This document shows, in pieces, positions 3,283 through 36,671 of a DNA stretch of 64,000 bases. This DNA comes from Candidatus Scatovivens sp. (GTDB lineage Bacteria > Bacillota > Clostridia > TANB77 > CAG-508): NCBI GenBank assembly GCA_045646345.1, contig JAZRKN010000001.1, positions 192,001 through 256,000 on the forward strand, read 5' to 3'. Numbering within the stretch: the first letter of the stretch is position 1; each line of letters starts with the position of its first letter. Position numbers and translations under genes: made by a program. The notes under the pieces were generated by a model. The model had not been told where the DNA came from, made no database searches, and saw only the letters and a list, made by a program, of their open reading frames with translations.

Positions 3283-4350
3283 ATGAAAAAGACTCGGAAC
3301 TTATTTCTGTTAGTCGGTTCACCTGCAGTTACACAAAAAGCTCTTGAGGCTATCAACTTTAAAGGTTTGATTACAGTCCCTTACTGGACACCTTGTCAGC
3401 CTGAAGATGTTGAAAAACATTTCAAGAACAATAAAAGTGTTATCTGCTCCCGAGATGATTTCGTTGGCAAAATCCCTAAAAACGCAATCATTATTAATGT
3501 TGTACCAGTAGCTCGTTCTAGCGTTTGTAATGCTAGTAACACAATTTACCTCAAAGATTCTGAGACTATCGCAAATCAGTTCGAAAATATTGCAATCAGT
3601 CTGAATCTAGACATCGGTGACCACAAATCTAACGCATCTGGTTTAGCCGATGGTCCAACCAAAAAGGATTGTGCATATTGCCAATACCTTGATGGAGATG
3701 TTCACAAAAACGAACGCCCCGTTTATCGTAGTGAAAACTTTTTTGTTATTCCTACAATCGGCCAGTTTGTCAATGGTTATTTGCTCATTATTCCAAATGC
3801 GCATATCATGTCCAATGCCGAACTTAACTCTGAGCACCTTGAAGAATTCTATACCGTATTAAATGACATCGAGTTCATTTTAAAACTCACTTACCCTAAT
3901 TTCAAAGAGGTTTTAGTGTGGGAAAACGGTAGTGGTTCTGGAGGAAAAGGAAAAGCAAAAGATTCTGTCGTTCACTCACATGTTCATGTAGCACTTTCAG
4001 ATTTAACTTCACACGATATCAAAGCATTATCTGGTTTTGACTTTGAAGAGATTGAATTAAAAGACCTCGCTCTTTACAAATCTCATTCCTATCTGTTAGT
4101 CAAAAATCCAGACAACGAGAAATGGATTATTAACAACAATCCTGAAGTCTATATCCCTAGACAATATGTAAGACAACTAATTGCCGAGGAATATGGAATC
4201 CAGGGTGAAGCATGGAACTGGAGAACACATCCTTTCGAGGAAAAAATGCATCAAACAGTCGACACAATCATCGCCGCTCTCGAAAAGAACCAATGTATTC
4301 TCTCTGAACGAATTCGAAATAGAACCCGATTTTTATTTGACGCAAATTAA
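3283..4350 (+). CDS. HIT-family nucleotide hydrolase (CwfJ-like C-terminus) with an extra N-terminal domain
   Basis: CAYC Zn motif, GYLLIIP, HSHVH histidine triad, PRQYVRQ...WNWR; opposite strand and visibly less AT-rich than its neighbours. Confidence 0.75.
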   Translation: MKKTRNLFLLVGSPAVTQKALEAINFKGLITVPYWTPCQPEDVEKHFKNNKSVICSRDDFVGKIPKNAIIINVVPVARSSVCNASNTIYLKDSETIANQFENIAISLNLDIGDHKSNASGLADGPTKKDCAYCQYLDGDVHKNERPVYRSENFFVIPTIGQFVNGYLLIIPNAHIMSNAELNSEHLEEFYTVLNDIEFILKLTYPNFKEVLVWENGSGSGGKGKAKDSVVHSHVHVALSDLTSHDIKALSGFDFEEIELKDLALYKSHSYLLVKNPDNEKWIINNNPEVYIPRQYVRQLIAEEYGIQGEAWNWRTHPFEEKMHQTVDTIIAALEKNQCILSERIRNRTRFLFDAN

Positions 4351-13201: not shown

Positions 13202-13313
13202 CCTTATTTATTTTTTTCTCATTATATCACATTTATTATTGTTGTTTATCATTTTGACGCAAAATTCACAAATAATTTAAATAAAGAAAAATATATTTAT
13301 TTCCATATAAAAA

Positions 13314-13342
13314 CGCTGTGCCACAGCAGTTGTAGCACAGCG
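13314..13342 (-). terminator. Terminator of the 13351-13647 cassette
   Basis: CGCTGTGC...GCACAGCG stem, T-run on the minus strand. Confidence 0.6.
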
Positions 13343-13350
13343 CAAAAATA

Positions 13351-13647
13351 TTACCAAGAAACTTTAAAGTATGGAATATAACCTTTTCGAGTAGATATCT
13401 CTATTTCAAATCCAAACTCTTTTAATTGTAGGTATTGTTTTCCATTAATATACGCTCCGTATAAATACGCGCTTCTGAATCCTGCTTCTGCCCTTCTATT
13501 TATCTCTTCAAAGATTTTTTCAATAGGCAACTAGGACCACTTTTGGGAAGATACTTTTAAAGCCTCTTTTGCATCCATTTCAATTACTTGTGGCTTCTAA
13601 ATAGCATTCCCAGTTTCAATAGCATTTTTTTTGAATAAATTCATCAT
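13351..13647 (-). pseudogene. 98-codon phage-like ORF interrupted by two in-frame TAG codons (pseudogene or TAG-recoded origin)
   Basis: AGGAGG RBS; MMNLFKKNAIETGNAI*KPQVIEMDAKEALKVSSQKWS*LPIEKIFEEINRRAEAGFRSAYLYGAYINGKQYLQLKEFGFEIEISTRKGYIPYFKVSW-TAA; TAG at 13597-13599 and 13531-13533; own promoter and terminator. Confidence 0.75.
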
Positions 13648-13733
13648 AACGATTTCCTCCTTTTAATTAATTCGGAGGTTTACACCTCCGAATTTTTATT
13701 TATTCAAAGGTGTAACATAAATGTTACCAGCAC

Positions 13734-13762
13734 AGTATAGCACGATTAACATAAAAAATCAA
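13734..13762 (-). promoter_or_regulatory. sigma-A promoter with extended -10
   Basis: TTGATT-ttttatgttaatcgTGc-TATACT. Confidence 0.7.
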
Positions 13763-13986: not shown

Positions 13987-14364
13987 ATGACAATGTTGAA
14001 CATCACTTTTTCTGAAGACTGGGAATGGAAAATGATCGATGACGAGAACCTTTCCGAAGAAGAACTCTCTGCCAAAAAGCAGAATCTGGAGGAATGGATT
14101 CTCACTGTGATGGCAGCTCTGGCTACCAAGCATAACTCAAAAGTCACCTTTTTCCCGTATCGAACCGCATCTGTGTTCGATACAATCTTCGAAGCTACGC
14201 GTGACTCCATGCGCCCGCTGGAATACATGCTGGCAATCAAGGCAGGTGTTAATCCTGAAAACCATACTGTATATGAGGTATACGATGGTTGTCAGACCTT
14301 TTACATCTTCTGCCATGGTAACCTGGTCCGCGTAGGCAAAAAAATCAAGAAAGAAGAGTGGTAA
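13987..14364 (+). CDS. Hypothetical protein, monocistronic cassette
   Basis: AGGAGG RBS (start may be ATG 13993), less AT-rich codons, own promoter and terminator. Confidence 0.75.
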   Translation: MTMLNITFSEDWEWKMIDDENLSEEELSAKKQNLEEWILTVMAALATKHNSKVTFFPYRTASVFDTIFEATRDSMRPLEYMLAIKAGVNPENHTVYEVYDGCQTFYIFCHGNLVRVGKKIKKEEW

Positions 14365-14555: not shown

Positions 14556-15092
14556 ATGAATAAAAAAACAGTTCTGTTAGTAAAACCTTTAGAACCATCT
14601 CAGGAAGCCTTTGAAAAGTTAGGATTTACATTTAAAGAAAGTGCTTATCCACTTTTGATAGAAGCAACTCTTCCTGACGGTTGGAATGCTGTAAAACGAT
14701 ATGACAGTGCCGTCACTACTACAGTATTGTACGACACCAAAAATCGAATTAGAGCCCATTCGTATCAGATCAATCCCGGCTATACACATATTCTTATCGG
14801 ACACACCGGATTATTCTGTAAGTATGAAATAAAAAGTATTTATCGCGGCGGATTGTTTAAAAAACGCAGATATGAAATTGCTGTACTGGGAAACACATCT
14901 ATTATCAATCACAATATAACAGATCCTTTATACGCAAAAAATATCTTCTCTGGCGGAAGAACTAAAGACATGTTTGTTTATGACATTGATACCGATATGT
15001 ATCATACAGAATATCTTCCAGTTAAACAGTGCGTAAATTTTATGGAACAGAACTATCCTGATTGGAGAAATCCTTTAGCTTATTGGGATTAA
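14556..15092 (+). CDS. Hypothetical protein, phage-like family
   Basis: AGGAGG RBS; FEKLGFTF...ATLPDGW...YPDWRNPLAYWD; terminator CCGATGGAGA/TCTCCATCGG at 15101-15126. Confidence 0.75.
   Translation: MNKKTVLLVKPLEPSQEAFEKLGFTFKESAYPLLIEATLPDGWNAVKRYDSAVTTTVLYDTKNRIRAHSYQINPGYTHILIGHTGLFCKYEIKSIYRGGLFKKRRYEIAVLGNTSIINHNITDPLYAKNIFSGGRTKDMFVYDIDTDMYHTEYLPVKQCVNFMEQNYPDWRNPLAYWD

Positions 15093-36597: not shown

Positions 36598-36671
<74 letters not shown>

Follow-up and report, generated by a model that had tools for sequence, protein, structure and literature searches.

How is a gene with two in-frame TAG codons read in a bacterium that uses TAG as a stop? The question is raised by a 98-codon gene of Candidatus Scatovivens sp., located in a stretch of 64,000 nucleotides that is referred to here as the window. 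The original prediction, made from the letters of the window, had described an intact frame of 98 codons with TAG at codons 17 and 39, together with a promoter, a leader hairpin, an AGGAGG ribosome binding site (RBS) and a terminator. All of these parts were found in their places. The strand, which the prediction had not given, is minus: the frame runs from 13647 to 13351 and ends in TAA. Reading 13351..13647 on the plus strand was ruled out, as the plus frame is closed. The parts of the locus are the following.

13734 to 13762, minus strand: promoter-like site of the sigma-A type (TTGATT-17 nt-TG-TATACT), with the same layout and place in 11 of 11 aligned family loci.
13710 to 13727, minus strand: leader hairpin P1, whose 3' strand, TTACAC (13715-13710), doubles as the 5' side of an alternative helix, P3.
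13669 to 13694, minus strand: leader hairpin P2 (CGGAGG/CCTCCG), whose loop can pair with the 3' strand of P1, a pairing predicted to release CCTCC so that it masks the RBS.
13656 to 13661, minus strand: RBS with the sequence AGGAGG.
13351 to 13647, minus strand: 98-codon gene of an unnamed family, with a variable, low-confidence N-terminus followed by a predicted alpha/beta domain (residues 26-98).
13597 to 13599, minus strand: first in-frame TAG (codon 17), the conserved "lock".
13531 to 13533, minus strand: second TAG in the frame (codon 39), particular to its lineage; elsewhere it lies at codon 32, 41, 52, 75 or 77, or is missing.
13305 to 13343, minus strand: intrinsic terminator with a 13-pair hairpin (13343-13313), conserved in the gene family.

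The source genome (G000) comprises 1.79 Mb, has a GC content of about 27.5% and is 96.7% complete. Contigs from three of four sequencing runs (three studies) cover both TAG sites and show no other letter. The fourth run covers codon 39 only, so that this codon is unchanged in four of four runs; one of the four may be the source sample. Read errors, which the original prediction had kept as a possible refutation, are contradicted by these independent contigs.

The gene stands alone in its genome. RBS-anchored TAG read-through candidates in free space were collected from G000 and from a second carrier genome, G032, and judged by eye. Only one of the 12 candidates in G000 is a split gene, the 98-codon gene itself; the remaining 11 resemble normal gene ends or noise. 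In G032, its orthologue is the only TAG-split gene among 27 candidates (1.604 of 1.630 Mb covered). A codon-score scan for TAG-split genes was dropped because it missed the 98-codon gene, whose codon use is atypical. No longer fused form of the gene was found among 7985 candidates, which is weak evidence.

Strong matches to the gene, each with TAG, were found in five of the 75 genomes available for the genus; three weak matches in the same set are without it. A metagenome pattern scan that was blind to TAG returned five loci, of which two represent new TAG lineages, one is a repeat, and the last two are copies of one TAG-free gene. The TAG codons of the seven lineages lie at 17/39, 20/77, 19/52, 20, 18/41, 21/75 and 16/32. 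The last copy is cut by the end of its contig; the other six are complete. All seven clade members whose DNA was read have a TAG at codon 16-21, at 36-56% identity and among variable neighbouring residues. In four of the complete copies this first TAG occupies one alignment column, and in the other two it lies within two columns of it, in a stretch where the alignment is uncertain. The second TAG is present in six of seven lineages, each time at a different position. All 13 internal stops in the seven lineages are TAG, with no swap for TAA or TGA. In the tree, six TAG copies fall on one side of a branch (support 93/89, not starred), and four distinct TAG-free sisters with the same leader, from other genera or unplaced contigs, fall outside it. 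Distant relatives of the domain, shorter or extended and with neither the leader nor the gating TAG, occur in other genomes of the order (L009, L010, L011, L014-L020).

The six complete copies contain no internal TAA, no TGA and no frameshift. Over their 15 pairs, pN is 0.31-0.43 and pS 0.41-0.92 (at least 0.66 in 14 of the 15), or about 0.35 versus 0.75. Identity by codon position is 0.59/0.70/0.41, third positions being the least conserved. On these comparisons of sequence, the frame behind the TAG is under purifying selection as a protein. A neutral simulation, run on a star tree without indels, puts the probability that all six tips lack TAA and TGA at no more than 1e-4; profile searches favour intact copies.

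This preference for intact copies would suit an ordinary pseudogene, as would the within-species changes in the frame: the sequencing-run contigs show only two, both non-synonymous. Neutral evolution, mixed stop types and frameshifts, by which a pseudogene would be recognized, were not seen in the TAG copies. The null hypothesis of the original prediction, two independent nonsense mutations, fails on the recurrence of the TAGs, on purifying selection and on the neutral simulation. A pseudogene with two nonsense mutations, or a set of read errors, is thus already largely refuted and hardly credible, given the TAGs in independent runs and the uniform stop type in seven lineages.

The TAG likely stands for glutamine, as had been expected from the outset. 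Gln occupies the first-TAG column in all 13 protein-only clade members (whose DNA was not seen). In four of the five columns where a complete copy has its second TAG, other members have Gln codons, and one of these columns is the near-invariant Gln of NGxQ. The Gln codons of the TAG copies comprise 20 CAA, 4 CAG and 11 TAG, against a CAA:CAG ratio of 240:293 in comparable genes. CAG is depleted relative to those genes (p=2e-4) and CAG plus TAG is not (p=0.22), as if TAG had replaced CAG. Database proteins with Q at the TAG sites were not counted as independent support; their contigs are shorter than 1.5 kb, and the genes were probably called under code 15. Since a second TAG was gained and retained several times, readthrough would seem to be efficient when it matters. 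Extra TAGs would then cost little, or be favoured as additional locks.

A different reading takes TAG as a true stop, the product being a short N-terminal peptide or a re-initiated C-terminal piece. Re-initiation can be imagined in G000, where a TTG directly after the second TAG opens 59 codons. An RBS-backed restart after the TAG was found in none of the six complete copies; in two of them the last TAG is located within the conserved domain and has no start codon after it. The peptide before the first TAG is the least conserved part of the protein, and a true stop could have been exchanged for TAA or TGA, which never happened. This reading is very improbable.

In the structure model, a low-confidence N-terminus precedes a confident alpha/beta domain (mean pLDDT 80.7). 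A fold search gave a best Z of 5.4, with uS8 at Z 5.2-5.3 (rmsd 2.6-2.8 over 59-60 residues), and no PDB fold match at E 0.001. The domain has a weak structural likeness to uS8 N-terminal, R3H and Smr-like alpha-beta folds; with Z under 8 this may be a common arrangement, and function cannot be transferred from it. Binding of nucleic acid by the product would be a guess from the model. Three unnamed phage families (phrog_8208, 9673 and 5321) show a weak profile likeness to the domain. The first is matched, weakly, by 19 of 31 family members, and models in BFVD also resemble the domain; distant phage ancestry of the domain is possible. No fitting family was found in Pfam, NCBIfam, PADLOC or the PDB. 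PADLOC returned nothing for the query and three single-member hits (E 0.015-0.023) among the 31 members, and no defence island surrounds the gene.

The original prediction had the gene captured from a phage that reads TAG as Gln (code 15). The rival closest to this view is repeated import: the family would live under selection in a code-15 mobile element that has escaped notice, and what sits in the chromosomes would be silent recent insertions. The GC3 of the gene is 0.27-0.47 versus 0.11-0.15 in flanking genes, and at a shared site its dS is above that of the flanks. On a marker tree of 31 genomes, the carriers are scattered over four branches and their nearest species are without the gene, a distribution that either loss or repeated gain could produce. 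Both patterns are what import would produce, and the resemblance of the domain to phage proteins is in keeping with it.

High GC3 was rejected as a sign of recent capture, since a whole resident gene class keeps it across species, although the origin of that class is itself unexplained, a point in favour of import. GC3 exceeds 0.25 in 150 of 1436 RBS-anchored frames of G000 (some of them false frames; 71 pass a promoter filter). It is kept in 32 orthologue pairs between G000 and G032, 21 of 31 of them syntenic. The median pS/pN of such pairs is 0.74/0.37 versus 0.71/0.31 for the TAG gene; pS is saturated, so the match in pN carries the argument for residence. In the sister species G030 and G032, the gene occupies exactly the same site with different second TAGs, and in four of five carriers it lies 5-7 kb upstream of the same protease gene. 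No remnant or decayed copy was seen in 20 stretches that were read, five of them under 6 kb.

Searches for a mobile source gave nothing. The gene has no relatives in IMG/VR, INPHARED or PLSDB, by scans sensitive to close relatives only, and the leader has none in viral and plasmid collections. One viral-collection match was dismissed as a portal-like N-terminus, and viral scans with a neighbouring high-GC3 gene were empty. There is no prophage context around the gene, whose flanks are host genes. A code-15 prophage would present phage genes with many in-frame TAGs; here a single gene is TAG-split in G000 and in the scanned part of G032. Capture from a code-15 phage is not supported as the explanation of the TAGs: no viral relative or prophage was found by these scans, TAG-free sisters share the leader, and the divergence matches that of resident orphan genes. 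Repeated import is quite improbable.

The high-GC3 genes form a stand-alone class in their own right. The promoter filter is passed by 71 of them in G000 and 48 in G032, with GC3 of about 0.3-0.6 versus 0.13 in core genes. Their CAA:CAG use is balanced, they evolve faster, they end in TGA more often than in TAG, and many are syntenic between species. Examples in the window are found at 3283-4350, 13987-14364 and 14556-15092. The motif TTATGT(A/T)AA often lies upstream (48 of 150 versus 110 of 1286).

If the gene is resident, the host might be expected to have a means of reading TAG. TAG ends 213 of 1413 predicted genes in G000, including rpsG, rplO and trmD, and its share of gene ends is 15-20% in G000 and G032. 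In 46 of 781 orthologue pairs of these two genomes, both genes end in TAG. Release factor RF1 is whole in three of the five carriers; in a fourth it is cut by contig ends, and in the fifth, whose genome is incomplete, it was not found. A tRNA with a CTA anticodon, which the original prediction had proposed to look for, is absent at the default threshold from the 33 tRNAs of G000 and the 31 of G032 (1.604 of 1.630 Mb). The carriers are incomplete MAGs, with anticodons read in two of five, and a host suppressor tRNA could be unassembled. A pattern scan of the 75 genomes gave matches about as frequent as in a reversed control, none tRNA-like by eye; a low-threshold tRNA scan gave 625 calls, dismissed as noise.

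Host-wide reassignment of TAG does not fit a genome in which TAG serves as a stop, RF1 is whole and no CTA tRNA was found. The original prediction is thus supported in that the host does not reassign TAG. Of the TAG-ended host genes that the prediction had cited, trmD holds, and rimI is not among the TAG examples checked. In the known case of pyrrolysine decoding in gut bacteria, too, TAG occurs inside a frame and the same bacterium ends genes with it. Unlike that system, no PylS over cut-off was found in the five carriers and no CTA tRNA in two genomes, and the TAGs align with Gln at variable sites, so that a pyrrolysine protein is not indicated.

Some further features of these genomes concern TGA and tRNAs. 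The RF2 gene of G000 (G000:C3:26042, minus strand) is open throughout, lacking the programmed frameshift that is usual for it, and has TGA as its stop. TGA makes up about 1% of core-gene stops. In tRNA-Trp(CCA) (G000:C1:165783-165857), the top pair of the anticodon stem is unpaired, a type of change reported to raise UGA readthrough (PMC13092985, available text). This unpaired position and the avoidance of TGA may be related. A third tRNA-Gly(TCC) in the window (36598-36671, minus strand) is unlike the two copies next to it, and its anticodon stem contains a mismatch.

The host could still read the TAGs itself through a near-cognate tRNA-Gln. Such readthrough might be weak and constant, keeping the amount of a potent product low, or it might be efficient in one physiological state, for example one with RF1 limiting in which the stand-alone high-GC3 genes are expressed. 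No unseen phage is needed. The high-GC3 class does avoid TAG as a stop (TAG:TGA 5:8 and 3:8 versus 130:9 and 146:2 in core genes; p=4e-6 and 8e-10). Conserved in-frame stops under purifying selection have also been reported in bacteria (Belinky et al., PMC7918605); the cases in the available text resemble the present one in that TAG/CAG sites within the frame are orthologous and dN/dS is below 1. Most of them are shallow and revert, and their authors assume that most are non-functional, whereas the TAG studied here persists at saturated synonymous divergence and further TAGs accumulate. A basal leak would multiply over two stops, yet second TAGs were gained repeatedly, only one lineage having a single TAG. 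The one tRNA-Gln(UUG) is canonical, with a normal 5-pair stem, the TAGs share no nucleotide context, and TAG-ending core genes show no excess of backup stops (p=0.25 and 0.47). No other gene of the high-GC3 class has an in-frame TAG in the two genomes. Host-intrinsic readthrough is unlikely, if still a serious contender.

The best explanation, held tentatively and with a probability a little below even, is a host gene controlled by TAG-to-Gln readthrough, which would be efficient while an amber-recoding phage infects the cell; its role may be defensive. In the uninfected cell, the conserved TAGs would keep the full protein off. An amber-recoding phage would then supply a suppressor tRNA late in infection, and the full-length protein would be made. 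The leader would add a second control at the level of the RBS. The product might harm the infected cell or the phage, an abortive-infection-like role that is guessed at because of the patchy distribution (5 of 75 species, four branches, variable site) and the double lock. An amber-recoding phage is the simplest source of efficient TAG-to-Gln reading, because no host decoder was found and TAG is needed as a stop elsewhere. The conditional switch foreseen by the original prediction therefore remains the best reading. Against gating by phage, the TAG-free sisters show that the protein family does not need the lock; the lack of excess backup stops in core genes and the two non-synonymous changes within the species also count against it. 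That this is an immune gene sensing the code switch, its amber-locked effector being translatable only when a phage turns TAG into Gln, is possible but rather doubtful.

Phages of the required kind have been reported. In the available text of Borges et al. (10.1101/2021.08.26.457843), TAG-to-Gln phages infect Firmicutes in animal guts, a prophage in Oscillospiraceae included, and prophages are proposed to sense co-infecting recoded phages via an in-frame TAG. The late code switch of recoding phages has been shown by proteomics (Peters et al., PMC9523058, available text). As described in these two sources, code-15 gut phages and prophages resemble the present case in that TAG is Gln in a standard-code cell and a proposed lock is opened by the code switch. 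Unlike their late genes, the gene described here is a lone chromosomal gene with a host-type promoter and leader, kept across species and with no prophage, structural genes or suppressor tRNA beside it. For the genus itself, the search for an amber-recoded phage was negative. Terminase matches, 18 in 14 of the 75 genomes, are all without in-frame TAG, and two genome regions that gain coding density under code 15 are ordinary on inspection. Four of 13 CRISPR arrays were searched against INPHARED and gave no credible hit; G000 has no array, and Cas1 was detected in none of the five carriers.

In the literature found, amber gating is so far a proposal for phage and prophage genes. A full-text search, in which subscription journals are thinly covered, did not turn up any host gene described as carrying an amber lock that is deeply conserved and multiply reinforced. 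If the preferred reading is true, a host gene that keeps its lock across species would be the bacterial side of a conflict between phage and host over the code, possibly a code-switch sensor, and the phage's own late-gene timer would be turned against it. A proven sensor of this kind would be categorically new. A single 300-base gene and a suppressor tRNA would make the long-proposed antagonism over the genetic code testable. Should the host instead read the TAGs itself, the gene would exemplify programmed multi-site amber readthrough at a depth unusual for bacteria. More such genes may be hidden, because standard annotation discards them as pseudogenes.

The second control assigned to the leader rests on its predicted folding. 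The leader folds well (z -5.1). All six pairs of the alternative helix P3 are present in 21 of the 22 distinct leaders, and some changes are compensatory; the pairing is partly built into the leader search pattern. In the P2 state the RBS is predicted to be free, and in the P3 state CCUCC is released onto it; the two states lie within a few kcal/mol of each other in most leaders. The leader is thus predicted to be a conserved two-state RBS switch, giving a second control at the RBS; alternatively, it could be a pseudoknot. A predicted pairing of the leader with codons 3-6 was discarded, as it is absent from the consensus fold. Rfam gave eight matches to the leader, all far below the gathering score. 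The leader would not be the cause of readthrough, because TAG-free genes share it.

The same unit of promoter, leader and RBS precedes unrelated small genes. Among 17 GTDB hits, seven belong to the TAG gene family, and none of the other ten is TAG-split. The conserved leader with two predicted states (window 13656-13727, minus strand; L021-L043) is thus found upstream of unrelated small genes in these Clostridia.
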